In this document: positions 3,338 through 19,957 of the stretch, one piece after another
Numbering within the stretch: position 1 is the first letter of the stretch
How the letters are laid out: each line of letters opens with the position of its first letter
Source: Chloroflexota bacterium
Lineage (GTDB): Bacteria > Chloroflexota > Dehalococcoidia > Lucifugimonadales > UBA3495
NCBI GenBank assembly: GCA_027623675.1
Contig: JAQBVF010000003.1
Coordinates: 1-24,000 of the forward strand
Length of the DNA stretch: 24,000 bases
Reading direction: 5' to 3'
Notes under the pieces: generated by a model
Database searches by the model: none
What the model was told of the DNA's origin: nothing
What the model saw: the letters and a program-made list of their open reading frames with translations, nothing else
Program-made: the position numbers and the translations under genes

Positions 3338-4315
3338 CTAGATACTAACCGGCAATCCGGTCTGGGCCGATTCGTAGGCCTTCAACACCAGCGCAAGGTC
3401 GTTAAGTCCTTCTTCACCGGTCATCGCCGGCTCCGATGACTCTAAGATGCTCCTCCGGAACTCCAACACCATGGGTAAGATACCAAGGTGGTCATCGTCA
3501 AAACGCCTCGTTTCTTGGGAGTTGTCGTAGTCAATCTTGAGCAGGGAACCGCCCAACTCAAAAGACACGTTCGCAAGCGTGCCGGCCACCCTGACCCACG
3601 GACGCTCGGTTGCCTTGGCCACACTCCAAGAATGGTTGATGATGCCCACCGCCCCGCGCGCCGAGCGGGTGGTTACGACGATCCCGTCCTCGGCTTCCAG
3701 TCCCGGCGTCCCCTGTGGGACTTGAGCGGCATACAGCTGGTCTGGCCGCCCGGCTAGGTAGGCCAGGACACTGGCTTTGTGGATCCCGCCGTCAATGAAC
3801 ACTCCGCCCCCATTCCGTTCCCGGTCGTTGCGCCAGGAACCTGGATTGAAGGGGAATTCTTCCTGTAGCTGCACGAGGCGCACTTGGCCTAATGCTCCCG
3901 ACTCAATCAGCCGCTTCGTTTCCTGTACCGGCGCCAGGAACCTGTAGTTCTCGGCAACCATCAGATTAACCTGGGCATCAGCTGCGGCGGAAATGATTAA
4001 GCGGGCTTCTTCCAGGCTTCGGGCTATCGGTTTTTCCACGAGGATGTGTTTCTTCCCAGTTGCCGCCAGCCGGGCGTGCTCCAAGTGAAGGTCATGGGGA
4101 GTGCAGATGTAGAGGGCGTCTATCCTAGGGTCGCCGGCGGCGTCTTCATAAGAGCCGAAAGCCCCCGCGCCGCCGAACCTTTGGGAGTAGGCGATGGCTC
4201 GGCCAGGGTCTCGGCTGGCGAAGTAGAGGTCCACGCGGTCCCGCGCGGTCGCCAGCGATTCGGCAAATGTGCGCGCGAACCCGCCACAACCTATCACGCA
4301 GAGCGCCAGCTTCAT
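3338..4315 (-). CDS. Gfo/Idh/MocA family NAD(P)-dependent oxidoreductase
   Basis: N-terminal Rossmann motif MKLALCVIGCGGFARTF, the conserved HILVEKPIA (EKP) motif and a C-terminal alpha/beta domain. The start is taken at ATG 4315 (AAGGA 6 nt upstream) rather than the track's 4351. Confidence 0.85.
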   Translation of the reverse strand: MKLALCVIGCGGFARTFAESLATARDRVDLYFASRDPGRAIAYSQRFGGAGAFGSYEDAAGDPRIDALYICTPHDLHLEHARLAATGKKHILVEKPIARSLEEARLIISAAADAQVNLMVAENYRFLAPVQETKRLIESGALGQVRLVQLQEEFPFNPGSWRNDRERNGGGVFIDGGIHKASVLAYLAGRPDQLYAAQVPQGTPGLEAEDGIVVTTRSARGAVGIINHSWSVAKATERPWVRVAGTLANVSFELGGSLLKIDYDNSQETRRFDDDHLGILPMVLEFRRSILESSEPAMTGEEGLNDLALVLKAYESAQTGLPVSI

Positions 4316-4712
4316 TCTCTGTCCTTGACCATTGATTGGCCCACTGTACACCCTATCCCGCTAAGTGGGTAATCAGAACCCACATCGGCGTTGTTCCCGC
4401 CGACGAGCGGGGTTAGACCGGCGACCCAGGTTTTTATCAGCAGACCCGTCCTGCCTATTTCTGGCGAGCGGGCGACTGTTCCAGATATACTCATTCTAAT
4501 AAAGAGGGTGGGCCATACCCGTGTCCGTGAATTGTAAAGTTTCCAGGTCATGCGGGCACCCAGGCAGAGTGGTTTGCCTGAAGCGTCGGGGTTGCCAGGC
4601 TTCAACACAACTGGCCGAACTGCTGTTCGGCCAAATTTGAGTGTTCGCCCAACCCCACCGCCAAGGGCTAGCAATAGCTGAGGAGTCAATAATAGTCTGA
4701 AGGAGAAAACCG

Positions 4713-5428
4713 ATGGTCAACCCAATCGCACATTTTCAAAATCCCAGACTGGTCAACGCCATATTCGGTGCGACTGAACTCTCATGGATCTGGCTGATTG
4801 CCCGAGTCTACATCGGCTGGAATTGGCTGGAGGCTGGCTGGCACAAAGTAACCGATGACGCTTGGATGGATGGGGGGCAGCCCTTGAAGGCTTCTGGCAG
4901 CGCGCCATCTCTATTCCGGAGCAAGGCAGGCCCCCGATCTCTTATGACTGGTACCGGGAATTCCTAGAATACATGCTCAACCATGGCTGGGCGGTTTGGT
5001 TCAGTCCCCTGATCGCAGTGGGAGAAGTCATGGTGGGCCTAGGGTTGCTCCTGGGCGCTTTCACCGGCGTCGCCGCATTATTTGGCGCCGTCATGAACTG
5101 GAACTTCATGTTGGCAGGCACGGCCAGCACCAACCCAGTCCTAGGATTGATCGGGATCGGCGTGATGCTTGCTTGGAAAACATCGGGCTGGTGGGGTGTC
5201 GACCGGTTCCTCCTCCCCCGGGTGGGCGCTCCGTGGCAATCTGGCACGCTGTTTGGGCGCGCCAGCCTCCTCTCCCGCCCAACTAGCCGGCAGGAATTCC
5301 TCAGGGCGATGGAGGAGTGGACCAGGATGCTGATCGGGGTCGGCTTGGGGCTCTTCGCCCTTATCCCATATGCCCAGGATGGATGGCATGGAGACCGCTC
5401 TACGCCTCAAGAACACATTCCCCATTAA
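4713..5428 (+). pseudogene. DoxX/DoxD-like family membrane protein, reading frame broken at a G6 homopolymer (4872-4877)
   Basis: ORF 4713..4967 (..WIWLIARVYIGWNWLEAGWHKVTDDAWMDGG) and ORF 4862..5428 (..AALEGFWQRAI..YDWYREFLEYMLNHGWAVWFSPLIAVGEVMVGLGLLLGAFTGVAALFGAVMNWNFMLAGTASTNPVLG..) are the N- and C-terminal parts of one DoxX-like protein. Adding one G to the run restores AWMDGGAALEGFW. AAGGAG lies 7 nt upstream of ATG 4713. Confidence 0.7.
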
Positions 5429-5970: not shown

Positions 5971-6870
5971 GTGGTGGATTCGAAAAGATACTTCGAATAC
6001 GGCTCTAAGGCTGATGTTGTGAGAGGGCAGATGGAAGAAACCTCGAGAGGTCCGCTGCCTGCCGGCGGCGATGCGCCAACCCCCGGCGGGCCGGATGACG
6101 GCGGAAATGCCAGCACATTAGCAGGACTGCGCCGGTTCAACGCGATCATGGCCGTGTTCCACCTGGCCCAGGGAATCGTACTGATCTTGCTGAGCACCGA
6201 TTTCAGCCTGCCGGTAACTTCGTCATTCCTGAAGTTTGACGCAGTCGCCAACAAGCTGGTCGCGGCGCCCGACGAGATCGCCAGCCTTCCTTTGGCCCCA
6301 ATGATCGCCGGGTTCCTCTTTATCTCGGCGGCGGCGCATGCCGCGGTGTCGTCCCCCTGGTTCTTCCCGTGGTACGCGAGGAATCTCCGCAAGGGCGTCA
6401 ACTACGCGCGGTGGATCGAGTATTCCGTGAGCGCCTCGGTGATGATCGTGGTCATCGCCATGCTGGTGGGGATCTACGACATCGCCAGCCTCATCCTGAT
6501 CTTTGCGGTGAACGCGTCCATGATCCTGTTCGGTTGGCTGATGGAGCTGCACAATCAGACCACGGGAGAAACCGATTGGACCTCTTTTTGGTTCGGCACA
6601 TTCGCAGGGACCATCCCGTGGGTGGTGATCGCGGTATACCTGATCGGCTCCGGCAGCGGCGAAGGGGGGCCGCCAGGTTTTGTTTACGGGATCTTCGGCT
6701 CGATCTTCGTATTCTTCAACGTCTTCGCCATCAACATGGTCCTCCAATACAAGAAGATCGGCCCTTGGCGCGACTACCTATTCGGTGAACGGGCCTACAT
6801 CATATTGAGCCTGACGTCCAAGTCCATCCTGGCCTGGCAGGTGTTTGCCGGCACCCTGCGGCCGGTCTGA
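5971..6870 (+). CDS. Heliorhodopsin (retinal-binding 7-TM photoreceptor, inverted topology)
   Basis: Near-colinear similarity to heliorhodopsin 48C12 as I remember it: RFNAIMAVFHLAQG (TM1 His), RWIEYSVSASVMIV (counterion Glu, codon 6418-6420), FAVNASMILFGWL, FWFGTFAGTIPWVV, PGFVYGI, GERAYIILSLTSKSILAWQVFAGTLRP (Schiff-base Lys, codon 6820-6822). The start is ambiguous: GTG 5971, or ATG 6031 preceded by GAGAGGG. Confidence 0.9.
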   Translation: MVDSKRYFEYGSKADVVRGQMEETSRGPLPAGGDAPTPGGPDDGGNASTLAGLRRFNAIMAVFHLAQGIVLILLSTDFSLPVTSSFLKFDAVANKLVAAPDEIASLPLAPMIAGFLFISAAAHAAVSSPWFFPWYARNLRKGVNYARWIEYSVSASVMIVVIAMLVGIYDIASLILIFAVNASMILFGWLMELHNQTTGETDWTSFWFGTFAGTIPWVVIAVYLIGSGSGEGGPPGFVYGIFGSIFVFFNVFAINMVLQYKKIGPWRDYLFGERAYIILSLTSKSILAWQVFAGTLRPV

Positions 6871-6961: not shown

Positions 6962-8005
6962 TTGGCAGCACAAGAAGACCTAAGATTTAACTGGTCACAT
7001 CTGCCGCCGGTGGCGTCTCACCTGGCGTCGACCGGAGGTGAGATACGGTCGCGCCTGGAAGATTTCGTGGTTACCGAGATCCCCAAGTACCTGCCCAATG
7101 GCCAGGGACTGCACGCCTACGCTTTCATTGAGAAGAGGGGCCTCACCACCCACGACGTGATCTCCCACCTGCGGTCTCAGGGCGTGGCGATGAAAGATGT
7201 TGGCGTGGCCGGCCGGAAGGACAAATACGCAGTAACACGCCAATGGATCAGCGTGCCCGCAGAGTCAGAGAACGCCCTCGCGTCTCTGGACGGATTGGAT
7301 GGGGTAACGGTGCTCGAAACCTCCCGCCACCGAAACAAACTGGGCGTGGGGCACCTTGCCGCCAACCGGTTCGAGATCACGGTCCGCGGCCCGGTGGACG
7401 ACTGGCAGACCCGAGCTCAGGCCATCTTGGGCCACCTGGAGCGGCAAGGATTGCCCAATTACTTCGGTCCTCAGCGGTTTGGCCGGTTCAATAGCAATGT
7501 TATCGACGCCATGCGGCTGCTCAAAGGCGCCGATGTCCCTGGGGGGCGCAGACTCCAGATGTTCTTTCTCTCTTCGCTGCAGTCCCATCTATTCAATTGG
7601 AACCTGAAACGGCGGATGGAGTCGGGCTTCTACCAGCAGGTGCTGGAGGGTGACAGGGCACAGAAGCACGACACGGGCGGCGTGTTCGTGGTGGAAGACG
7701 CGGCCAGAGAAAGCGAACGGGCGGCCAGGTTGGAGATCAGTGCGTCCCTGCCTTTGCACGGGCACAAGGTGCGTTACAGCGCTGGGCATGCTGGGAGATT
7801 GGAACAGGAGATCTTGGACCACTTCGGTTTTTCCCGCGGCGACCTGCGATTCTTGGGGCTGGGTTCATGGAGGATCAGCCGGGTGCGGGTAGACGAGATA
7901 TCCCTAAAGACGGTGGACGGTGGGTATACGGTCGGGTTTACCCTTCCCAGTGGCGCCTATGCCACCTGTCTGCTGCGTGAGTTGGTCGGCCCAGAAGCTC
8001 GATAA
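6962..8005 (+). CDS. truD: tRNA pseudouridine(13) synthase TruD
   Basis: 347 aa with TruD blocks: EDFVVTEIP, the catalytic Asp motif GVAGRKDKYAVTRQW, LPNYFGPQRFG and FTLPSGAYATCLLRELV. The TTG start at 6962 has GAGG 5 nt upstream. Confidence 0.9.
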   Translation: MAAQEDLRFNWSHLPPVASHLASTGGEIRSRLEDFVVTEIPKYLPNGQGLHAYAFIEKRGLTTHDVISHLRSQGVAMKDVGVAGRKDKYAVTRQWISVPAESENALASLDGLDGVTVLETSRHRNKLGVGHLAANRFEITVRGPVDDWQTRAQAILGHLERQGLPNYFGPQRFGRFNSNVIDAMRLLKGADVPGGRRLQMFFLSSLQSHLFNWNLKRRMESGFYQQVLEGDRAQKHDTGGVFVVEDAARESERAARLEISASLPLHGHKVRYSAGHAGRLEQEILDHFGFSRGDLRFLGLGSWRISRVRVDEISLKTVDGGYTVGFTLPSGAYATCLLRELVGPEAR

Positions 8006-8080
8006 CGCCGCAATGGCCCGCAGGCACCGGCGCTAAATCATTTGCCTAATCTGGAGATCGAAGCTCCCGTGGGATTCATT

Positions 8081-8109
8081 TTGATCGGGCCTGGGCGTGA
8101 TTTTATATC
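8081..8109 (+). promoter_or_regulatory. Candidate sigma-70-like promoter upstream of the ureA leader
   Basis: TTGATC (8081-8086), a 17-nt spacer, then TATATC (8104-8109). If used, the phased pentamer array lies in the transcribed leader. An alternative weak TANNNT (-10) candidate, TAAGGT, sits at 8235-8240 just downstream of the array. Confidence 0.3.
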
Positions 8110-8155
8110 TGATTAAGTGAGAGATCGTGCGTATTCCCGCTGATTCGGTATCGCT

Positions 8156-8215
8156 GAAACACATACGTAACATCTCAGCAACATTTATTTAACCTAGGCG
8201 AAATTCAACCGAAAC
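8156..8215 (+). promoter_or_regulatory. Array of six direct pentamer repeats phased at exactly 11 bp; GlnR-box-like / OmpR-family regulator binding-site candidate
   Basis: GAAAC(8156) n6 GTAAC(8167) n6 GCAAC(8178) n6 TTAAC(8189) n6 GAAAT(8200) n6 GAAAC(8211), read directly. It matches the Streptomyces-type GlnR box scheme gTnAc-n6-GaAAc. It lies 167 nt upstream of the ureA start. Confidence 0.45.
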
Positions 8216-8381
8216 AGGTCTCGCTTAGTCTCAATAAGGTTTCGTAGCGATACGTGCGCTCTGATCAAGCCCGGTAGCGGCGAAACCTGTGGGGGAAGTC
8301 AGACGCTCTAGGTATCCCGGCGGTGCGGTAGCGCCGTTGAGAGCACAAGGGCATTTGACCAAACATCGTGGAATCATTGAA

Positions 8382-8684
8382 TTGTTTCTAGCACCAAGAG
8401 ACCAGGAAAAGTTGTTGATCTTCATGGCCGCGGAACTGGCAAGACGCCGGCGTGACCGGGGATTGAAACTTAACCACCCAGAGGCAACTGCCCTTATCAC
8501 CTTCGAGATTCTTGAAGGGATCAGAGACGGACGCTCTGTGTCGGAACTCATGGCATTTGGGGCGACCATCCTCACTCGAGACGACGTGATGGAAGGCGTT
8601 CCCGAGATGCTGGCTGAGGTCCAGGTCGAAGGCACGTTTCCTGACGGAACGAAGCTGGTGACCGTTCATAACCCCATTCGATAA
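8382..8684 (+). CDS. ureA: Urease subunit gamma (UreA)
   Basis: (M)[99 protein letters not shown] is colinear with canonical 100-aa UreA (MxLxPRExxKLL..). TTG 8382 gives the canonical length. The track's GTG 8289 would add 31 non-homologous residues. Confidence 0.9.
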
Positions 8685-8937
8685 ACCCTCCCAACGGAAC
8701 TTGCGAGACGCTTCCGCCGCTTCCGTAAGGACGACCGGCGACGGTTGGCGCCCCTTTAAGTAACACGTGTTAGCTTTCTTCGTGCACAAGACGGCTGGCG
8801 CAAAACTCGGGGAGGCCGGCCATAGGCGACTTGTCGGTTGGCACATGGATAGTTTGGCGGGCAGCCGTTGAGCTTCAAATCAAATTCATTCAATCCCGGC
8901 TTTCACGTCTGCCGCGATTAACTCAAGGAGAACCCAG

Positions 8938-10221
8938 GTGACTTTTCTTAAAAGTGTCATAAACATTCCGCGCGGGGCACTGGCCATATTCGCCATGTTG
9001 GTTCTGGCCGCGGCGGTCGCTTGCGGCGGATCTGATCCTACTTCAGCTCCGGCAACCGCCGCGCCTGATTCTGGCGGTGGGTCCGGCTCGGGTAGCGGCT
9101 CCGCGGAAACCATCAAGGTCGGCGTCCTCCATTCCCTGTCTGGCACCATGGCGATCAGCGAGACGGCGGTACGCGATGCCACGCTGTTGGCGATTGACGA
9201 GATCAACGCCTCCGGCGGCGTGCTAGGCAAACAACTTGAACCCGTCGTGGAAGACGGCGCGTCCGATTGGCCGACCTTTGCTGAAAAAGCGCGGAAGTTG
9301 ATTCAATCTGACGATGTTGCCGTGGTCTTTGGAGGCTGGACCAGCGCGAGCCGAAAGGCCATGCTTCCCGTTTTCGAAGGTCTCAACGGTCTTCTGTTTT
9401 ACCCGGTCCAGTACGAAGGTTTGGAAGCATCGCCCAATATCTTCTACACCGGCGCAACGACGAACCAGCAGATAGTCCCAGCCGTGGAATCGTTGCTGGA
9501 AGACGGCAAGACCCGGTTCTTCCTGCTTGGCTCCGACTATGTTTTCCCCCGCACTTCCAATCTGATCATCAACGCTCAACTCAAGGCCGCCGGCCTAGAG
9601 GCGGTTGGTGAGGAGTACACACCTTTGGGCCACGTGGAATACTCCACCGTGATCAGCAAGATCATCGCCGCCGACCCGGACGTGGTGTTCAACACTTTGA
9701 ACGGTGACTCCAATGTGGCTTTCTTCAAGCAATTGAAGGACGCGGGTATCGGAGCAGAGGACATCGTCACCCTGTCGGTCAGTGTTGCCGAGGAAGAGAT
9801 CGTTGGCATCGGGGCCGAAAACATCAAGGACCACTTGGTCGCCTGGAACTATTTCCAGACCACCGATACGCCCGAAAACGAGAAATTCGTCGCGGCCTTT
9901 AAAGCCAAGTATGGTAGCGACCGTGTGACTGACGACCCGATTGAAGCCGGATATTTCGGGGTTTACCTCTGGGCCGCCGCCGCTGAGAAAGCCGGCAGCA
10001 CAGACGTCGCCGCCGTAAAGGCTGCCGCGCCCGGAATCTCCTTCCAAGCGCCAGGCGGATTGGTTACCATCAACGGCGATAACCAGCACGTTTCCAAGAC
10101 TGTTCGCGTTGGTAGAGCCCTTGGCGACGGACAGATCGAAGAGATATGGAACTCGGGTGGACCAGTTAGCCCTGACCCGTATCTGGAAACATACGAGTGG
10201 GCTTCCCAGTTCCACCGGTAA
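8938..10221 (+). CDS. urtA: Urea ABC transporter substrate-binding lipoprotein UrtA
   Basis: [80 protein letters not shown] is typical of UrtA. The N-terminus has a signal peptide with lipobox LAAAVAC followed by a Gly/Ser linker ([10 protein letters not shown]). GTG 8938 has AAGGAG 7 nt upstream. Confidence 0.9.
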
Positions 10222-10289
10222 CCAGCACTTGGTCCAGATATAGGTAAACGACTGTCCCTAAATAGCGTTGTTTACTATCTCGCAGGCGA

Positions 10290-10324
10290 ACGGAATGGTA
10301 CCCGGCTAACGGGTACCATTCCGT
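10290..10324 (+). terminator. Strong intercistronic stem-loop between urtA and urtB (possible partial terminator or mRNA-stabilising element)
   Basis: ACGGAATGGTACCCG / CGGGTACCATTCCGT forms a perfect 15-bp stem with a 5-nt loop. No U-tract follows. A second 9-bp hairpin lies at 10244-10252 / 10267-10275. Confidence 0.4.
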
Positions 10325-10435
10325 GCATCGGCTGCATTGGCAAGGAAGATCACTGGATGCTGCTGGCAGACCAGATCAGCCGGTTTCCGGACGGAATATC
10401 TTGAACGACGGACCGCTTAACATGGACATCCGGAA

Positions 10436-11341
10436 ATGACAGATCCAGCAACGTTTGCTCTGCTTTTATTCAACGGCCTAAGCATGGGTTCGATCCTGCT
10501 GCTGGTTGCTCTTGGCCTGGCCCTCTCTTTCGGTTTGATGAACATCATAAATCTCGCCCACGGCGAGTTTATTATGATTGGCGCCTACACCGCTTATTCC
10601 ATTCAGCAGTCAGCGATATCCCTCACCGGAGACGCGTCGCCCGCGATCACCTACCTAATCTCGATTCCGGCCTCCTTCCTGGTGGCCGGGATCATGGGTT
10701 TTGCGACTGAACGACTGATCATCAGACACCTTTATGGCCGTTCGCTGGACACGCTCCTGGCTACTTGGGGCGTCGGCCTCGCCCTGCAGCAACTGGCCCG
10801 AAGCATCTTCGGAGCGCCAAACGTACAGGTTGTTTCGCCGGGGTGGCTCGCAGGAAGCCTTCATGTCACGGATGTTTTAGTTTTCCCGATCAAACGGATC
10901 TTTATCATAGTATTGGCGTTCGTTTGCGTTGGGGGTCTCTTCTGGTACATGTACAAGACTCATTGGGGTCGCAGGACCAGGGCGGTGATGCAAAACCGGC
11001 AAATGGCCTCCAGCTTAGGCGTGGCCGCCAATCAGGTTGACGGTCTCACGTTTGCACTGGGTTCCGGTTTGGCCGGAGTTGCTGGTTGCACCCTAGCCCT
11101 GATCGGACCCATCGGCCCTTCGATGGGAACGTTCCACATCGTCGACGCATTCATGGTTGTTATTTTGGGGGGTATGGGGCAAATAACCGGCGCGATCGTC
11201 GCAGCCCTGACCATCGGGATGCTGAATAGCATCTTCGAATTCTCCACCAACGCGGTGCTGGGCAAAGTAATGGTATTTGCGATGATTATCTTGTTCCTGC
11301 AGTGGAAACCGAACGGTCTGATGCAGCTGAGTAAACGATAG
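10436..11341 (+). CDS. urtB: Urea ABC transporter permease UrtB (LivH-like)
   Basis: 301-aa polytopic protein with LivH-family blocks ([47 protein letters not shown]), positioned directly after urtA. Confidence 0.88.
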
Positions 11342-11375
11342 ATCAAATGAGATATTCGCCCATCTCGGACTGTGT

Positions 11376-12509
11376 ATGTTAGACAGATTGATCGAGAATA
11401 TTCCAACCGGCGTCCGGACCCAGCTGATTCGTTTCGGTCCGCTACTGCTGCTCGCCATTTTCCTATTCGCGGCCCCGCTGGTGTTGTCTGACTTCCGTGT
11501 GAACCTCATCGGCAAGATCCTCACCTTTGCCATATTGGCTTTGTCACTGGACCTGATATGGGGTTACGCCGGGATGCTCAGTCTTGGTCACGGTGTTTTC
11601 TTTGGCCTGGGCGCCTACGCGTTCGCAATGTTCTTAAAGCTCGAGGCATCCGCAGGCAAGCTTCCGGATTTCATGTTCTGGAGTGGACTCGAAGAGTTGC
11701 CCTTTTTCTGGTCACCCTTCCAGCATGCCTGGTTCGCCCTCCCCATGGTAATCATCATGCCGGGCGTGCTGGCCGGCGCCATCGGCTACCTGGTCTTTAG
11801 AAGCCGCATCACCGGTGTTTACTTTGCGTTGATAACCCAGGCGTTGGCCTTGATGGTCAGCATCCTGTTCATCGGCCAACAAGCCTACACCGGCGGGACC
11901 AATGGACTGACCAATCTTACTGCGGTCTTCGGCCACTCGATCTACAGCACCAGTACCCAGCAGACCTTGTATTACATCACTGTGGTATCCCTTTTGGCCG
12001 CCTACCTGTTGTGTATGGGAATCGTGGCCTCGCCATTTGGACGGTTGCTGGTGGCGATCCGCGACGACGAGAACCGGGTGCGATTTTCGGGATATGACCC
12101 GGCGATAATCAAGTCGGTGATATTTTTTGTCTCGGCTAGCCTGGCCGGGATCGGTGGCGCTTTGTATGCCCCGCAGGTGGGTATCGTGTCTCCATCGATC
12201 ATGGGGATCGTCCCTTCGATCGAGGTGGCCGTGTGGGTGGCGATCGGCGGTCGAGGAACTCTGATCGGAGCGATAATCGGGGCGATCATCGTGAACTACG
12301 CCAAGAGTTTGCTCAGCGAATCCTTCCCGGATTTTTGGACTTATTTCTTGGCGGTATTATTCATCGGCGCCGTGCTATTGTTCCCCCGGGGTATCATCGG
12401 ACTATTGCGGCGGGAAGGATGGCACTGGCCCCAATGGGTAAGTGTCGCCCGCGCTCGGATCAGCTTCCTCACCAACTTCGCGAATACCATGAGGCGGACG
12501 GCCAGATAA
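11376..12509 (+). CDS. urtC: Urea ABC transporter permease UrtC (LivM-like)
   Basis: 377-aa polytopic protein with LivM-family blocks ([46 protein letters not shown]). The stop TAA at 12507-12509 overlaps the urtD ATG by 1 nt. Confidence 0.88.
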
Positions 12510-13441
12510 TGGAACAGAATGGACATATTGGAGGAGCCGATATCAGCAACGGCCATCAGGACGACGGCACTCAAAATATCCTTTCCGTTTCTGACGTAAC
12601 CATCAGTTTCGATGGGTTCACGGTCTTGGACAATCTGGGATTTTTCATTAACCGGGGCGAGATGCGTTTTCTCATCGGCCCTAACGGCGCGGGAAAGACG
12701 ACCCTTCTTGACGTGATAACCGGTAAGTCAAAACCGGACCGTGGAATTGTCACATTTGATGGCGAAGTGAACCTGTCACGCCGCTCGGAACATGCCGTGG
12801 TGAAGCTTGGCATCAGCCGTAAATTCCAAGCACCGACAGTGTTCAACAGTTTGTCGATCCTCCAAAACCTGGAAACATCCGTCCGCTTTCGAAATCGGGT
12901 CATCGGGATGTTCAGATCGCTTTCGGCCACACAATCACAGATCGTTCAACAAACGTTGGAACTGATCGGGTTTGAGGGCCGCGCTCATCGGAATGCTGGG
13001 GTGCTATCCCACGGGGAGCGTCAATGGCTGGAGATTGGGATGCTGTTGGTACAGGAACCCAAACTGCTGCTGCTCGATGAACCGGTGGCGGGCATGACCC
13101 GGCGAGAACGTGATCGGACCGGGGAATTACTCCAAGAGATCGCCAGAGAAAGGTCTGTTCTAGTTGTCGAGCACGACATGGAATTCGTCCGGCGGTTCGC
13201 CAAAACGGTGACTGTACTGCATCAGGGAAAGGTCTTGAGCGAAGGAACCATGGACATGGTCCAGCAAGACCCCAAAGTAGTCCATGCTTATCTGGGTCGC
13301 AGCAGAGAAGCATCGCGGCACGCAGTCCCAGCAGGTCATAAGCTATCCGCAAATGGATCTGGGGCGTTGGAGCCTGAGGGATCACCGGTGTGGGGGAACC
13401 AGCAAAACCTGGTGAAAGATGAGCGGAATGCTGTCAATTAG
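12509..13441 (+). CDS. urtD: Urea ABC transporter ATP-binding protein UrtD (with N- and C-terminal extensions)
   Basis: Walker A GPNGAGKTT, signature LSHGERQWLEIG, Walker B LLLLDEP and FDGF near the N-terminus, as in UrtD. The start is taken at ATG 12509 (TAATG overlap with urtC); the track's 12233 start lies inside urtC. About 50 residues follow the usual ..AYLGR end. Confidence 0.85.
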   Translation: MEQNGHIGGADISNGHQDDGTQNILSVSDVTISFDGFTVLDNLGFFINRGEMRFLIGPNGAGKTTLLDVITGKSKPDRGIVTFDGEVNLSRRSEHAVVKLGISRKFQAPTVFNSLSILQNLETSVRFRNRVIGMFRSLSATQSQIVQQTLELIGFEGRAHRNAGVLSHGERQWLEIGMLLVQEPKLLLLDEPVAGMTRRERDRTGELLQEIARERSVLVVEHDMEFVRRFAKTVTVLHQGKVLSEGTMDMVQQDPKVVHAYLGRSREASRHAVPAGHKLSANGSGALEPEGSPVWGNQQNLVKDERNAVN

Positions 13442-14129
13442 CGGTCTGTCCGCCGGATATGGCCAAAGCACGATCCTCAAGGAGGTTAACATTGACCTCC
13501 TTTCGGGTCAGGCTATCTGTCTGATCGGGCGAAACGGAGTGGGTAAGACCACGCTGCTCAAGACAATCATGGGACACATTCGGCCCAACTTGGGAAAGAT
13601 CGTCCTAGAAGACAATGACGTGACCACCTGGGCAGCCAACAGGCGGGCTGTCGCCGGTATCGGTTACGTTCCTCAGGGTCGGGAGATATTCCCGTTTCTG
13701 ACCGTACACGAGAACTTGCTGATGGGGCTTGAAGCTCTGCCAAAGAGACAGCGTTCTATCGACGCCCTTGACGGGATGTACGATAAGTTTCCGGCCCTTA
13801 AGACATTTCGCACCAAGGCAGCAGGAACCCTCAGCGGCGGGCAGCAGCAACAGTTGGCCCTGGCCAGGGTCCTGGTCCGGAAACCCAAAGTATTATTACT
13901 AGACGAACCCACGGAGGGTTTGCAGCCCAACATAGTCCAAGAGATCGAGGACCTTCTCCACGGTATCCGCGATTCGCATGAAACTTCGATATTGCTGGTG
14001 GAGCAATTCTTAGACTTTGCCATGAGTGTCGCTGATCACTGCTACGTGATGGAAAACGGCGAGATTGTTTTGGAAGGTCAATCCAAAGACCTCGACCGAA
14101 CGTTGGTCAGAGAATATCTGGCTGTCTAA
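13419..14129 (+). CDS. urtE: Urea ABC transporter ATP-binding protein UrtE
   Basis: Walker A GRNGVGKTT, signature LSGGQQQQLALAR, Walker B LLLLDEPTEG. The LivF-like architecture and operon position fit UrtE. It overlaps the urtD 3' end by 23 nt. Confidence 0.9.
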   Translation: MSGMLSISGLSAGYGQSTILKEVNIDLLSGQAICLIGRNGVGKTTLLKTIMGHIRPNLGKIVLEDNDVTTWAANRRAVAGIGYVPQGREIFPFLTVHENLLMGLEALPKRQRSIDALDGMYDKFPALKTFRTKAAGTLSGGQQQQLALARVLVRKPKVLLLDEPTEGLQPNIVQEIEDLLHGIRDSHETSILLVEQFLDFAMSVADHCYVMENGEIVLEGQSKDLDRTLVREYLAV

Positions 14130-14210: not shown

Positions 14211-15548
14211 ATGGTTTCACGGAACGCCGAGGAAATAGCATTCGTGGTGCAGGCCGCCAGCGAAGCCGACGTCAAATTTGTTCGTTTATGGTTTCCGGAT
14301 ATTCTGGGGCAGCTGAAAGGGTTCGCGATCGGAGTAGACGACCTGGAGGACTCCATCCTTCACGGGGTGGGTTTCGATGGGTCGGCGATCGAAGGTTTCG
14401 CCAGGATACAAGAGAGCGATATGCGTGCCTTCCCCGATCCAACGACTTTTACATTGCTGCCGTGGCGACCGCAGCAGAACGCCGTCGCCAGGATGTTCTG
14501 CGACATCCGTGGCCCCCGGGGCGAGGTCTTCAGCGGCGACCCGCGACTCGCTTTGAAGCGCAATCTGGAAAAAGTGGCCCGGTTGGGCTACACCTACTAT
14601 GTGGGAACCGAGTTGGAATTCTTCTATCTCAAGAATTCCATCAACCCTGAACCTCTGGACAACAGCGGCTACTTCGACCAACTCTCAGGCCAACTGGCCA
14701 GCGACCTCCGCCGGGACACGGTGCTGAACCTCTCTGAGATGGGCGTGCCGGTTAAATACTCCCATCACGAGGCGGCACCCAGCCAACATGAGATTGACCT
14801 ACAGTACACCGGCGCGCTGGCTATGGCTGACAGCGTGATTACGGCCAAACTGTTGATTAAAGAGTTAGCGCAATCACGGGACGTATACGCAACTTTCATG
14901 CCCAAACCCCTCGCCGGCGTGAACGGGTCGGGCATGCACACGCATCAGTCGTTATTCAAAGGCGACAACAACGTTTTCTATGACGGGGACGACGAGCATT
15001 ACCTGTCTGATATCGGGAAGAAATTTATCTCAGGTCTGCTGTATCACGCGCCCGAGATCACGTTGGTGACGAACCAATGGATCAATTCGTACAAGCGCCT
15101 GATACCGGGGTTTGAGGCGCCGGTTTATGCGTCTTGGGCGCATGTTAACCGGTCTGACCTGATCAGGGTCCCCGCCTATAAGCCAGGATATGAAAGCTCG
15201 ATGCGCATCGAGTACCGGGCGCCCGACCCGGCCTGCAATCCCTACCTGGCATTCAGCGTCATGTTGGCCGCCGGCATGAAGGGAATCGAAGAAGATTACC
15301 CGATACAACAACAGGTGGTCGGCAACGTTGCTGAAATGACCGAGGAGCGGCGTCAGTCATTGGGCATCAAGACGCTGCCGAGCAGCCTGGGTGAAGCGAT
15401 CGCATTGGCGGAGGACAGTGAACTGCTCGAGGAAGCGCTGGGTTCCCACATCCACCGCAGTTTCATAGAGAATAAGAAGATCGAGTGGCGAGAGTACCGG
15501 GCGACGATCACCGACTATGAGATCAACCGTTACCTTTCGGTCCTGTGA
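14211..15548 (+). CDS. glnA: Glutamine synthetase, type I (alpha-like; no obvious adenylylation loop)
   Basis: GS-I blocks: VKFVRLWFPDILGQLKGF, FDGSAIEGF, YYVGTELEFFY, HHEAAPSQHEID, KPLAGVNGSGMHTHQS, NSYKRLIPGFEAPV, RIEYRAPDPACNPYLAF. The region equivalent to the E. coli NLYDLP adenylylation site reads GNVAEMTEE. ATG 14211 has GAGGG 8 nt upstream; the alternative ATG 14196 has no RBS. Confidence 0.9.
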   Translation: MVSRNAEEIAFVVQAASEADVKFVRLWFPDILGQLKGFAIGVDDLEDSILHGVGFDGSAIEGFARIQESDMRAFPDPTTFTLLPWRPQQNAVARMFCDIRGPRGEVFSGDPRLALKRNLEKVARLGYTYYVGTELEFFYLKNSINPEPLDNSGYFDQLSGQLASDLRRDTVLNLSEMGVPVKYSHHEAAPSQHEIDLQYTGALAMADSVITAKLLIKELAQSRDVYATFMPKPLAGVNGSGMHTHQSLFKGDNNVFYDGDDEHYLSDIGKKFISGLLYHAPEITLVTNQWINSYKRLIPGFEAPVYASWAHVNRSDLIRVPAYKPGYESSMRIEYRAPDPACNPYLAFSVMLAAGMKGIEEDYPIQQQVVGNVAEMTEERRQSLGIKTLPSSLGEAIALAEDSELLEEALGSHIHRSFIENKKIEWREYRATITDYEINRYLSVL

Positions 15549-15599: not shown

Positions 15600-15974
15600 A
15601 TGATACCAGGCGAGATCGTATTGGCCGATACCCTGATTATTGCTAATGAAGGGCGTTTAACCGTGGAGCTAACGGTCGCAAACACGGGAGACCGGCCGAT
15701 TCAAGTGGGGTCGCATTTCCACTTTTTCGAAGTGAACCGTGCGTTGCGGTTCGATCGAAAACCCGCGTTCGGCATGCGCTTGAATATCCCGGCAGGTACG
15801 GCGACCCGCTTCGAGCCGGGTGATGACAAGCTTGTGACCCTGGTTGAACTTGGCGGCCGCAAAGAAGTGTACGGGCTCAACTCCCTAACAGATGGTCCAA
15901 CAACCGGGGAAACGGCCCGAGCCGCCGCGGTGGCGAAAGCCAAGGCCGCAGGTTTCTCGGTGGACGCGCGATGA
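15600..15974 (+). CDS. ureB: Urease subunit beta (UreB)
   Basis: [52 protein letters not shown] is canonical UreB. ATG 15600 has AGGAA upstream. The stop overlaps the ureC start (ATGA at 15971-15974). Confidence 0.92.
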
Positions 15975-17689
15975 GCCTGGGAATACCTCGCCGGCAATAT
16001 TCCGACCTGTTTGGTCCGACCACCGGTGACCGTATCCGGCTGGCCGACACCAGTCTGTTCATCGAGATCGAAGAAGACTTAACTGCCCACGGAGATGAGA
16101 GCAAGTTTGGCGGCGGGAAGGTCTTGCGAGACGGCATGGGGCAATCATCTTGGGCGGCCCGGTCCGATGGGGTTCTCGACACGGTCGTGACCAACGCGGT
16201 GATTCTTGACCACTGGGGAATCATCAAAGCCGACGTGGGAATCCGCGACGGGCGAATCATCGCCATAGGCAGGGCCGGCAATCCTGACATCATGAATGAC
16301 ATATCCCCCAACATGGTTGTGGGGGCGGGGACGGAGGTCATCGCCGGCGAAGGAATGATCCTTACCCCTGGTGGGATCGATCCTCACGTCCATTTCATCT
16401 GCCCGCAACTGGCCTGGGAGGCTTTGGCGTCCGGGGTGACTACCCTGATCGGCGGGGGCACCGGACCAGCCACCGGGACCAAAGCGACGACGTGTACGCC
16501 CGGTGTTTGGAACATTCACCGGATGCTGGAGGCCGCGGAAGAGATTCCGATCAATCTTGGTTTCTTGGGTAAGGGCAACGCGTCTTATCAAGAACCCCTC
16601 GCAGAGCAGATTCTTGCCGGGGCAATGGGCCTGAAACTTCATGAAGACTGGGGCACCACCCCGGCGGCGATAGACTCGGCTTTGACTGCCGCCGAGTTGT
16701 ACGACGTTTCGGTGGCCATCCACTCGGACACGCTGAACGAGGCTGGCTATCTGGAAGATACCATCCGGGCTTTCAAAGGCCGGACGATCCATACCTACCA
16801 TACGGAAGGCGCTGGCGGTGGCCATGCACCCGATATCATCCGCGTGTGCGGTGAGGCCAACTGCCTGCCGTCGTCGACCAACCCCACCATGCCGTTCACC
16901 GTTAACACCATGGATGAGCACTTGGATATGCTCATGGTCTGTCACCATCTGAACGCGAGCGTGCCCGAAGACCTGGCTTTCGCCGAGTCACGGATCAGGG
17001 CCGAAACCATTGCCGCCGAAGACATCCTGCAGGACATGGGTGCGATCAGCATGATGTCGTCTGATTCCCAGGCGATGGGCCGAGTGGGCGAAGTTATCCT
17101 CCGTACTTGGCAGACAGCCGACAAGATGAAGGTCCAGCGGGGTCCTTTGGCCGGAGAAAAACCTGGGAACGACAATCTACGCGCTCGTCGTTACATCGCC
17201 AAATATGCCATTAACCCCGCCATAGCCAATGGCTTTGCCGATGAAGTTGGGTCTATCGAAGTCAACAAATTGGCAGACATGGTGCTTTGGCGGCCGGCAT
17301 TCTTCGGAGTAAAGCCGGAACTAGTGATCAAGGGCGGGTTTATCGCCGGGGCCGCCATGGGTGACCCTAACGCCTCGATCCCCACTCCACAGCCCGTGAT
17401 TTTCCGTCCGATGTTTGGAGCGATGGGCCGGGCGCGTTACACAACTTCCGTAACATTCCTGTCCGCCGCGGCGATAGAGGCTGGCGTACCCCAAAGTTTG
17501 GGCCTGCAGAAACGGACCGTGGCCGTTCATAACTGCAATAACTTAACCAAGGCCGACATGGTTAATAATGACGCCTTACCGAAGATCGAGGTTGATCCCG
17601 ACACCTATGAGGTGCGCGCCGACGGCGAATTGCTAAAGTGCGAACCAGCCGAGACCTTGCCGATGGCCCAGCGTTATTTTTTGTTCTGA
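15971..17689 (+). CDS. ureC: Urease subunit alpha (UreC)
   Basis: 572 aa with nickel-site and flap motifs: [22 protein letters not shown] (carbamylated Lys), [44 protein letters not shown]. Confidence 0.95.
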
Positions 17690-17707
17690 TCGGCTGATTC
17701 GAATCAA

Positions 17708-18421
17708 TTGAAACGGAGCAGTATCTTGGACCGAGAAGTTGCAAGTCATGTCAGCCTGCTCCAGTTTGCCGACTCGCTCTTTCCCATCGGCGGACAGGCC
17801 CATTCTTTCGGGCTTGAATACTATGTTGACCAGGGTTTGGTAACCGGCGCGAATGGCGTTCAAGAATTATTGGTCTCCCACCTGAGCGGCCGGGCTGGGC
17901 CTTGTGATGCCGTGGCCGTGGTGGTTGCCGAGCGCCTGGCACGTAAGAATGACCTGGCGGGATCTATCTCATTGGACCGAGATATGGACGCCCAGAATCA
18001 TGTTAAAGAGTCCCGGAATGCCAGCCATCAGATGGGCCACCAGACGGCCCGTCTGGCGAGCGCTCTGACCAAAGACCCGTTCATCAACTCGTACCTAGAC
18101 GCTGTCGAGTCGTCGGATACGCCAGGAAATCACTCCGTTGCTTTCGGCCTCTGCGGTGGGGTGATCGGCTGGAGCCCCGAGCAGACAGCATCGGCGTTTT
18201 TGTTCTCAACGGCCAGTCAGATGGTGGGAGCGGCGACGCGGCTGGTGCCCATCGGTCAGTTGGACGCTCAGAAGATACTGTGGGCGGTTGGTCCGCTGAT
18301 CTCCGAATTGTCAGCCGGAGTTATAGACAAGGCTCGCGACGATATCTGGAGTTTCAGTCCTGGACTAGAGATCGCGGGTATGCGGCACGCCGGTCTGGAA
18401 CAACGGCTATTTCGCTCCTGA
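17708..18421 (+). CDS. ureF: Urease accessory protein UreF
   Basis: LLQFADSLFPIGGQAHSFGLEYYV is the UreF N-terminal signature. The start is uncertain: TTG 17708, or TTG 17726 with GGAG 8 nt upstream. Only 18 nt separate it from ureC, so no ureE fits between them. Confidence 0.85.
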   Translation: MKRSSILDREVASHVSLLQFADSLFPIGGQAHSFGLEYYVDQGLVTGANGVQELLVSHLSGRAGPCDAVAVVVAERLARKNDLAGSISLDRDMDAQNHVKESRNASHQMGHQTARLASALTKDPFINSYLDAVESSDTPGNHSVAFGLCGGVIGWSPEQTASAFLFSTASQMVGAATRLVPIGQLDAQKILWAVGPLISELSAGVIDKARDDIWSFSPGLEIAGMRHAGLEQRLFRS

Positions 18422-18480
18422 CGGGGGCTTAAGATTCGGCCGAACGATCACCGGCAAGCGAGTCTTTGATCGAGGTGGAT

Positions 18481-19101
18481 ATGGCACAAAAACCAACAGT
18501 CATTGGGATCGGCGGCCCGGTTGGCTCCGGAAAAACAGCTTTGGTGGAGGCGTTGTGCCGCAAGTTAAGTGATGAGCATGAGATGGCTGTCATTACCAAC
18601 GATATCTACACCAAGGAAGACGCAGAATTCTTGGTCCGTAGAGGGGTCCTGCCAACCGGGCGGGTAATGGGCGTCGAGACCGGGTCTTGCCCCCACTCGG
18701 CGATACGGGAGGATGCGTCGGTCAACCTTGAAGCCATACGTGAATTGAACCGCCGGTTCCCCAACTTAGAGTTGATCCTGCTTGAAAGCGGAGGGGACAA
18801 CTTATCTGCCACATTCAGCCCTGAATTGGTCGACTCCGCGATCTACGTGATCGACGTGGCCGGCGGCGAAAAGATCCCGAGAAAAGGCGGCCCGGCCATA
18901 ACCCGTTCGGAACTTTTGATAATCAATAAGACCGACCTGGCATCGCAGGTAGGCGCGGACCTGGGAATCATGGAAACCGATACGATTCGGGTCAGGGAAG
19001 GCCGCCCATTTTATTTCACGAACCTCCGTGACGCCGAAGGTATTGGCGCCGTATCAGACTGGGTGCTGGAACGGTTAACTACTAGGATGACAAGCGGTTG
19101 A
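18481..19101 (+). CDS. ureG: Urease accessory GTPase UreG
   Basis: P-loop [14 protein letters not shown], the CPH motif ([13 protein letters not shown]), ESGGDNL and INKTDL. ATG 18481 is preceded by GAGGTGG. There is no His-rich N-terminal stretch. Confidence 0.92.
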
Positions 19102-19138
19102 TCCGCTTCGTTCTACGGCGCCGAGCGACGATTAAATC

Positions 19139-19957
19139 ATGAATGGCAGTATGAGCTTGGGCTTTGAGAGCCGTGGACCCAAAACCGTGATGACGCACAG
19201 CCGTTCAACCTCGCCGCTGAAAATATCGAACCCGATATATCTAGACGACAGCGACGCGCTTTGCGCCATGTTTCTAAACCCATCCGGAGGGCTGCTCGGG
19301 GGTGATCGCCTCATTACGGATATCAATCTGGCCGAGAACGCCCATGTTGTGTTTACGACTCCTTCAGCCAGCAAGGTATACCGGACGAACGCGGACCCCG
19401 CCTCACATCGGACTACCGTTCATGTAGAAGAAGGGGGGGTGTTGGAATACATACCGGACCATGTTATTCCCCACCCTGGGTCGTCCTTCAGCCAGTCCCT
19501 AACTGTGAATCTTGAGGCAGGAAGCCGGGCAATCATCTTTGATGGATTTTCTGTGGGACGCATCGCCCGGAATGAGAAATGGCGCTTCAAGGAATTCAAC
19601 ACCGAGCTTGAGGTTAATCTTCGCGACAGAGCGGTTTTCCGCGATCGAATCAAGATTCAACCGGATAACTGGACCCCGTCACAGCTCGGAGGATCGGAGT
19701 CCGCTAATTACGTGGCCACAATGGTGGTCTACGCTGATGTTGATCTAGATTGGCAAGAAATGGCTGATGGTTTTACTCGAGTGGTTTCAGACGATCGTGA
19801 TTCGGTCGGAGCGGCTTCAACTCTTTCCGATGGCGGATGCCTCGTCCGTTATTACACCGTGTCAGCCCACGGTCTAAACAAGGTCACCAGTAGGTTATGG
19901 GCGATGGCCAGACGCTCCCTCTTAGATAGACCCGCTTTAGAGTTAAGAAAATGGTAG
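19139..19957 (+). CDS. ureD: Urease accessory protein UreD (UreH)
   Basis: NPSGGLLGGDRL..FTTPSASKVYR.. is the typical UreD core. It is the last gene of the same-strand cluster. Confidence 0.85.
   Translation: MNGSMSLGFESRGPKTVMTHSRSTSPLKISNPIYLDDSDALCAMFLNPSGGLLGGDRLITDINLAENAHVVFTTPSASKVYRTNADPASHRTTVHVEEGGVLEYIPDHVIPHPGSSFSQSLTVNLEAGSRAIIFDGFSVGRIARNEKWRFKEFNTELEVNLRDRAVFRDRIKIQPDNWTPSQLGGSESANYVATMVVYADVDLDWQEMADGFTRVVSDDRDSVGAASTLSDGGCLVRYYTVSAHGLNKVTSRLWAMARRSLLDRPALELRKW

Follow-up and report, generated by a model that had tools for sequence, protein, structure and literature searches.

To our knowledge, GlnR has been described only in Actinobacteria. It is an orphan OmpR-family protein that joins a special N-terminal domain (GlnR_1st, PF21695) to a Trans_reg_C domain (PF00486). 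Its targets include the amtB, glnA, ureA and urtA promoters of Streptomyces and Mycobacterium. The GlnR box follows the scheme gTnAc-n6-GaAAc, in which the A at position 4 is irreplaceable. The coding strand is the usual location of these boxes, of which a promoter typically has two, with three at S. coelicolor amtB (PMC10704036). The same boxes are also bound in Actinobacteria by MtrA and PhoP, and MtrA represses there (PMC10704036). In the cryo-EM structure of GlnR with RNA polymerase, four protomers are arranged head to tail on a promoter scaffold spanning −64 to +13; the one at the proximal b2 site, which is located 3′ of the −35, touches the beta flap and sigma region 4 (PMC10235972). Here we compare these systems with a phased array of six pentamers found in the window, by which we mean the whole 24,000-nt stretch of DNA that we analysed.

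A phased pentamer array ahead of a urea and glutamine operon

The array sits in the 376-nt gap between truD and ureA, on the coding strand and 167 nt 5′ of ureA (Table 1). Successive pentamers are separated by 6 nt, and the six units make up three contiguous boxes. The preliminary description of this DNA had reported the six pentamers, their positions and their exact 11-bp phasing, and direct reading confirms all three. Searching both strands of the window for [GT]NAA[CT] at an 11-nt period returned 645 single matches, 10 doublets and one run of at least three units, which is the six-unit array itself. Comparison with composition-matched random sequence, proposed in the preliminary description, bore the array out: runs of five units appeared in none of 300 first-order Markov simulations (24 kb, both strands, with the composition of the window or of the local intergenic DNA), and a run of six is expected analytically about 6e-7 times per window. 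The array is not a chance arrangement. Tandem Repeats Finder reported no repeat at the array, indicating that it is not a recent tandem duplication. The G+C content of the array region is about 0.50, versus 0.58–0.62 in the flanking genes. The motif [GT]NAA[CT] was defined after the array had been seen, and a crude motif-blind periodicity score of little power reached 5.8 against a null mean of 4.4 and a null maximum of 6.2, which is not significant by itself. The decisive support is therefore the independent recurrence of the array, described below.

Table 1. Features of the window (coordinates in nt; position 1 is its first letter)
Feature	Coordinates	Strand	Basis and details
Heliorhodopsin gene	5971–6870	+	Pfam PF18761, E=3e-104
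truD	6962–8005		
Six direct-repeat pentamers, exact 11-nt period	8156–8215	+	Read directly; starts: GAAAC 8156, GTAAC 8167, GCAAC 8178, TTAAC 8189, GAAAT 8200, GAAAC 8211
−35 position	8200–8209	+	Inferred; ATTCAA 8203–8208, 17-nt spacer
−10-like hexamer TAGTCT (TANNNT)	8226–8231	+	Begins 15 nt past the first base of the last pentamer
Transcription start, near 8238	8236–8240	+	Inferred from the −10-like hexamer; leader of about 144 nt
5′ leader	8237–8381	+	Two predicted hairpins, about 8237–8288 and about 8298–8359; kept in the two closest lineages
ureA, urease gamma subunit, first gene of the operon	8382–8684	+	Pfam Urease_gamma; 100 aa, TTG start
urtABCDE, urea ABC transporter	8938–14129	+	Pfam families of called genes; urtA 8938–10221, urtB 10436–11341, urtC 11376–12509, urtD 12509–13441, urtE 13428–14129
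glnA, glutamine synthetase, inside the operon	14211–15548	+	Pfam Gln-synt_N and Gln-synt_C
ureB, ureC, ureF, ureG, ureD	15600–19957	+	Pfam Urease_beta, Urease_alpha, UreF, cobW (UreG), UreD
Helicobacter 5′ ureB antisense sRNA match	16123–16421	−	Rfam RF02514, 76 bits; inside the ureC coding sequence

Other nitrogen and phosphate operators were sought across 8006–8381. On both strands, no consensus site was found for NtcA, TnrA/GlnR (MerR-type), AmtR or NtrC (palindromes scanned: GTAN8TAC, TGTNAN7TNACA, CTATN6ATAG and TGCACN5-7GTGCA). The E. coli pho box CTGTCAT and the B. subtilis PhoP hexamer TT[ATC]ACA are absent from the same interval, in which one octamer, TTTAACCT at 8188, matches the cyanobacterial SphR repeat PyTTAAPyPy(T/A). 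We rejected a pho box (PhoB/PhoP/SphR) identity on the absence of these cores, bar the single SphR-like octamer, and on the genes downstream, which serve nitrogen assimilation and not phosphate. Rfam gave no RNA family at the array, either at the gathering threshold across the window or at E<=10 across 7950–8450.

As the preliminary description had anticipated, the target genes are those of nitrogen assimilation: urease, urea uptake and glnA are all held in the downstream operon. This gene content suggests that the unit spans urea uptake, its hydrolysis and the fixation of the ammonium into glutamine, and no terminator-like site was found in 7900–9000. The start of ureA is most likely the TTG at 8382, because residues 1–99 align to positions 1–99 of the 99-position Urease_gamma profile. 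Close homologues of UrtA carry the name 'Urea ABC transporter substrate-binding protein'.

The order of the genes is unusual and variable, with ureA split from ureBC by urtABCDE and glnA. Three orders are seen in relatives (L005–L008, L175 and L179): urtABCDE-glnA-ureA-ureB, urtABCDE-ureA-glnA-ureB and ureA-urtABCDE-glnA-ureB. Whichever gene leads the operon, the phased array stays in front. Two genes 5′ of this glnA-containing operon is a heliorhodopsin gene, and in Actinobacteria a heliorhodopsin is reported to bind the glutamine synthetase encoded beside it and to regulate that enzyme (PMC9529153). In the window, the heliorhodopsin gene and glnA are separated by truD and the predicted promoter, and no heliorhodopsin was seen 5′ of the operon in two close relatives, one of which (L167) has other genes there while the other (L170) is covered for a short stretch; the link between heliorhodopsin and glnA may accordingly be coincidental. 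The antisense sRNA match within ureC most likely reflects conserved urease alpha coding sequence and not an sRNA gene.

The window is part of a 234-kb metagenomic scaffold, and its DNA is also present in the NCBI MAG GCA_027592465.1. Among species-representative genomes, the nearest relatives of its UrtA belong to Dehalococcoidia/Chloroflexota MAGs (77–84% identity), and the closest named UrtA proteins are labelled '[Chloroflexi bacterium]'. The housekeeping protein Mfd shares 89–90% identity with its counterparts in MAGs named 'SAR202 cluster bacterium' and 'Dehalococcoidia bacterium', Tara Oceans material among them. Together, the relatives of UrtA and Mfd identify the host as a marine SAR202-type Chloroflexota bacterium and not an actinobacterium. 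GlnR-dependent promoters are marked by an actinobacterial host, and by the same two proteins this locus departs from them. The fit to the actinobacterial GlnR box that had been proposed for the array holds for its box-like form and fails for its host.

Recurrence of the array in relatives and in Actinobacteria

Recurrence was assessed in 160 loci around UrtA relatives and in contigs of closer relatives. Throughout 1.92 Mb from 164 loci, runs of at least six relaxed [GT]NNA[CT] units occurred only 5′ of the orthologous urtA/ureA operon, and always on the coding strand. They were found in copies of the window, in four Dehalococcoidia/Chloroflexota MAGs (L005–L008, with 6, 6, 8 and 6 units) and in a MAG labelled Nitrospinota (L082, 6 units); these arrays lie 260–375 nt 5′ of the point where the urtA protein match starts. 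Counting shorter runs, ten related lineages with Chloroflexota-type operons carry four to eight in-phase units before the same operon. The two closest share the ureA-first order: L170 (UrtA 92% identical) reads GAAAC GTAAC GCAAT GTAAC GAAAT GAAAC, and L167 (91%) reads AACAC GTAAC TTAAC TTAAC GAAAT GAAAC. Five units and a degenerate sixth are present in L179 (81%), and four units each in L175 (77%) and L085 (75%).

A comparison of the window with L170 shows differences at 2 of 30 pentamer positions and 16 of 36 spacer positions (Fisher p = 5e-4); for L167 the corresponding counts are 4 of 30 and 13 of 36 (p = 0.03). Conservation before orthologous ureA had been set as a test in the preliminary description, and the array is indeed kept while its spacers drift. 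Pooled over the ten lineages, the 60 units give the consensus G-(T/A)-A-A-C. Position 4 is A in all 60, as it is in each of the six units of the window, in line with the earlier proposal that the motif fits the GlnR half-site scheme. Position 1 is G in 46 units and T in 13, the same split as between C and T at position 5, and A is found at position 3 in 49 of the 60 and at position 6 in 33, whereas spacer positions 7–11 carry 0.05–0.17 bit. As the search motif had fixed positions 1, 4 and 5, the unbiased signal is that of positions 2, 3 and 6. Judged from these alignments, the pattern of conservation is one of selection on a recognition motif and not on a repeat.

The array in L082 (5687–5746 of that locus, JAYGFR010000149.1) reads GAAAC GAAAT GCAAC TTAAC GAAAT GAAAT, with TAGATT at +15, and its unit order is nearly that of the window; the UrtA of this locus is only 52% identical. 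No array was found in the nearest UrtA relatives of L082 within the data set. The promoter may have been transferred together with the operon, the contig may be misbinned, or the regulator may be more widely spread. In L179, two extra GAAAC units (GAAAC-n6-GAAAC, at 9290–9312 of that locus) stand 5′ of the main array and 3 nt out of phase with it, and the pair resembles a separate additional box.

The same data set holds actinobacterial controls. Four-unit arrays stand before urtA or a divergent ureA in loci of Nonomuraea, Streptomyces, Cellulomonas, an Acidimicrobiia MAG and Microbacterium. The preliminary description had called six units unusually long. Set against these four-unit urtA promoters, that judgement stands; set against the three boxes at S. 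coelicolor amtB (PMC10704036), the length is not unprecedented. We built a 6-position matrix from the Chloroflexota units only and scored it over four in-phase units. Next after the training loci, it ranked the urtA/ureA promoters of 11 Actinobacteria, and it also retrieved the amtB promoter beside the glnR gene on L173; loci of Firmicutes, Cyanobacteria and Proteobacteria were essentially missing from its top ranks. This retrieval across phyla suggests that Chloroflexota and Actinobacteria share an operator design at orthologous genes.

Promoter geometry and the search for a regulator

In L085, as in all ten lineages, a TANNNT hexamer stands exactly at +15, counted from the first base of the last unit, against a background of 0.64% of positions in the DNA of the data set. 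The hexamers of the relatives are TAGACT, TAGTCT, TAATAT, TAGAGT, TAAGTT, TATCTT, TATCGT, TACCGT, TAGATT and TACTCT, and among the actinobacterial controls the same position holds TAAGGT in Nonomuraea, TACGTT in the Acidimicrobiia MAG and CANNNT in Streptomyces and Microbacterium. We read TANNNT as a predicted −10 element, with the last unit ending 10 nt before it. With that reading, unit 5 would overlap the −35 position and unit 6 would fall between −35 and −10; relative to the inferred start, the units begin near −27, −38, −49, −60, −71 and −82. The hexamer at the −35 position, ATTCAA, is a poor match to TTGACA (2/6 positions), and a sigma-70 consensus scan found no promoter in 7900–9000. 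The poor −35 and the lack of a consensus promoter fit an activator-dependent promoter. Tandem direct repeats at 10–11 bp over a weak −35, the generic layout of an OmpR/PhoB operator, are what is found here.

The leader downstream of this predicted promoter may form a stabiliser hairpin at the 5′ end of the transcript, or it may be a cis-regulatory RNA not yet recognised. In an alignment fold of only three sequences, 5 pairs are changed on both sides (for example GGTTTCG/CGAAACC versus GTCTCG/CGAGAC), the single-sequence z-score is only −1.48, and the leader had no Rfam match at E<=10. A palindrome in the ureA–urtA spacer was dropped, as relatives do not conserve it.

Turning to the protein, we found no GlnR-type gene (PF21695 with PF00486) within about 45 kb around the array, which takes in some 9–11 kb of the source contig on either side of the window. 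The window and the 8.7 kb on its left contain no OmpR-family gene, and tblastn with OmpR and GlnR against the loci of the data set gave no match in any Chloroflexota locus. Searched against a 5.8-billion-protein set, M. tuberculosis GlnR had only Mycobacterium among the matches listed. A representative search listed the 150 closest GlnR-like clusters, and the named members of the 20 that were checked are all actinobacterial; tblastn of the GlnR N-terminal domain against plasmids likewise hit only Actinobacteria. A full-text literature search found no paper tying an OmpR-type GlnR to Chloroflexota.

About 6 kb past the right end of the window, 3′ of proB-proA, lies a two-component module (4152–6647 of L182, about 29.5–32 kb in window coordinates) that comprises a GAF-HisKA-HATPase kinase, a single receiver protein and an OmpR-type regulator (4152–4847). 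The receiver domain of this regulator is canonical, whereas its recognition helix, TVRTGIGILRKKL, is atypical; it reaches only 27 bits against GlnR, and in relatives it does not adjoin the operon. No other OmpR-family gene was seen near the operon, and nothing more links this one to the array; we consider it a weak candidate for the protein that would bind there. GNNAC repeats at 10–11 bp are common to several OmpR-family regulators, so the motif alone does not name the protein.

Readings of the array and comparison with known systems

We propose that the six pentamers serve as operator for a promoter that depends on an activator. An OmpR/PhoB-family winged-helix response regulator would bind them head to tail on one face of the DNA, and its specificity would be that of GlnR from Actinobacteria (one half-site, G-T/A-A-A-C, every 11 bp). 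Its last two protomers would flank the weak −35 position and contact sigma region 4 and the beta flap, and the upstream protomers would add cooperative affinity and contacts to the alpha subunit. Under nitrogen limitation, binding would switch on a single 12-gene transcript, ureA-urtABCDE-glnA-ureBCFGD, by which urea would be taken up and split to ammonium, and the ammonium fixed into glutamine. We infer the protein binding, the activation, the nitrogen-status signal and the start of transcription from the DNA itself. We judge it probable that the array is genuine, is bound by a protein and acts as an OmpR/PhoB-type operator related to nitrogen. The preliminary description had likewise seen an OmpR/PhoB-type, GlnR-box-like array at a nitrogen operon, for which motif, phasing, conservation, register, targets and controls together provide good support. 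Given such an operator, the chance that the protein is a true GlnR orthologue, with a GlnR_1st domain, is even or somewhat lower, and the balance falls to another OmpR-family regulator with GlnR specificity. More tentatively still, and with some doubt outweighing belief, we suggest that a GlnR-type global nitrogen regulator also operates in SAR202/Dehalococcoidia and possibly in the Nitrospinota-labelled lineage, either as a distant orthologue or as a convergent OmpR-family protein with the same specificity and promoter geometry, and acting through six to eight protomers in place of four.

The architecture could be as proposed and the signal another, if the array were bound by a canonical, phosphorylated OmpR-family two-component regulator: a PhoB/PhoP/SphR-type phosphate regulator, a urea-specific system or the GAF-kinase/regulator pair beyond the right end. 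The OmpR family generally recognises GNNAC-like direct repeats at 10–11 bp, the unit at 8188 matches the SphR repeat, a GAF-HisKA kinase, a single receiver and an OmpR-type regulator are encoded on the same contig, and PhoP and MtrA bind at actinobacterial GlnR boxes (PMC10704036). We nevertheless hold a different signal to be unlikely, as the operon serves nitrogen assimilation purely, neither the E. coli pho box nor the B. subtilis PhoP hexamer is present, the predicted placing of the last site 3′ of the −35 is a GlnR-specific geometry, and the neighbouring regulator, with its atypical helix and its low score against GlnR, does not accompany the operon in relatives. The sign of regulation could also be the opposite, with a filament of the regulator over −82 to −23 blocking RNA polymerase until released. 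This is decidedly unlikely: the poor −35 (2/6) and missing consensus promoter are as expected where an activator is needed, the fixed 10-nt gap to the predicted −10 matches the activated GlnR complex (PMC10235972), and actinobacterial GlnR activates genes for scavenging urea and ammonium. In favour of repression, the array spans the −35 region and the spacer, where a bound protein can obstruct polymerase, GlnR represses some of its targets, and MtrA is a repressor at GlnR boxes (PMC10704036).

Two further readings dispense with a specific protein. Phased A-rich pentamers might curve the DNA or act in the manner of an UP element, given AA/AAA steps every 11 bp, near the helical repeat, and a region poorer in G+C than its flanking genes; however, the GTTAC, GTCAC and TTCAC units of relatives have no A-tract, the conserved G1, A4 and C5 form a recognition pattern and not a bending pattern, and curvature leaves unexplained both the strict register with the −10 and the match to GlnR-target promoters. 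We consider this highly improbable. The idea that the pentamers came together in an intergenic region by accident draws on the post hoc motif and the non-significant periodicity score, and it has to contend with the simulations, in which no run of five arose, and with an array that recurs at the same place in ten lineages, its pentamers kept and its spacers drifting. Conservation effectively refutes it, leaving a probability that is close to nil.

The dark ocean counts SAR202 bacteria among its most abundant cells, and we know of almost nothing on how they control nitrogen use. The predicted promoter offers a testable handle on this, with a defined motif, a −10 register and a single operon leading from urea uptake to glutamine. 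What stands out here is the extension of GlnR-box-like sites to SAR202/Chloroflexota and the length of the arrays, at six to eight units. If the binding protein is a relative of GlnR, work on Actinobacteria would have underestimated the age or the mobility of the GlnR system, and the matrix could predict nitrogen regulons of uncultured Chloroflexota from metagenomes. If it is not, the array would represent convergent operator design within the OmpR family.

Among described operators, pho boxes (those of PhoB in E. coli, PhoP in B. subtilis and Streptomyces, and SphR in cyanobacteria) resemble the array in their 11-bp direct repeats and in head-to-tail binding by OmpR/PhoB-family proteins, and they likewise replace a weak −35 about 10 bp before the −10. 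They differ in their cores (CTGTCAT, TTAACA, GTTCACC and PyTTAAPyPy(T/A)), only one of the six units here being SphR-like, and in serving the phosphate regulon. AfsQ1 is an OmpR-family regulator reported to bind GlnR-box-like GTnAC-n6-GTnAC repeats at Streptomyces nitrogen genes. MtrA, of the same family, occupies such repeats at nitrogen genes in Streptomyces as well (PMC10704036). Both differ from the regulator proposed here in being canonical two-component regulators of Actinobacteria, and MtrA represses. From actinobacterial GlnR boxes the array departs in its SAR202/Dehalococcoidia host and in its six to eight strictly contiguous in-phase units, versus the usual four. It shares with them the 5-nt half-sites, the invariant A4, the 6-nt spacers, the coding-strand orientation and the nitrogen-assimilation targets, and the predicted −10 would place its last unit, like the proximal site of GlnR promoters, 3′ of the −35 and 10 nt before the −10.
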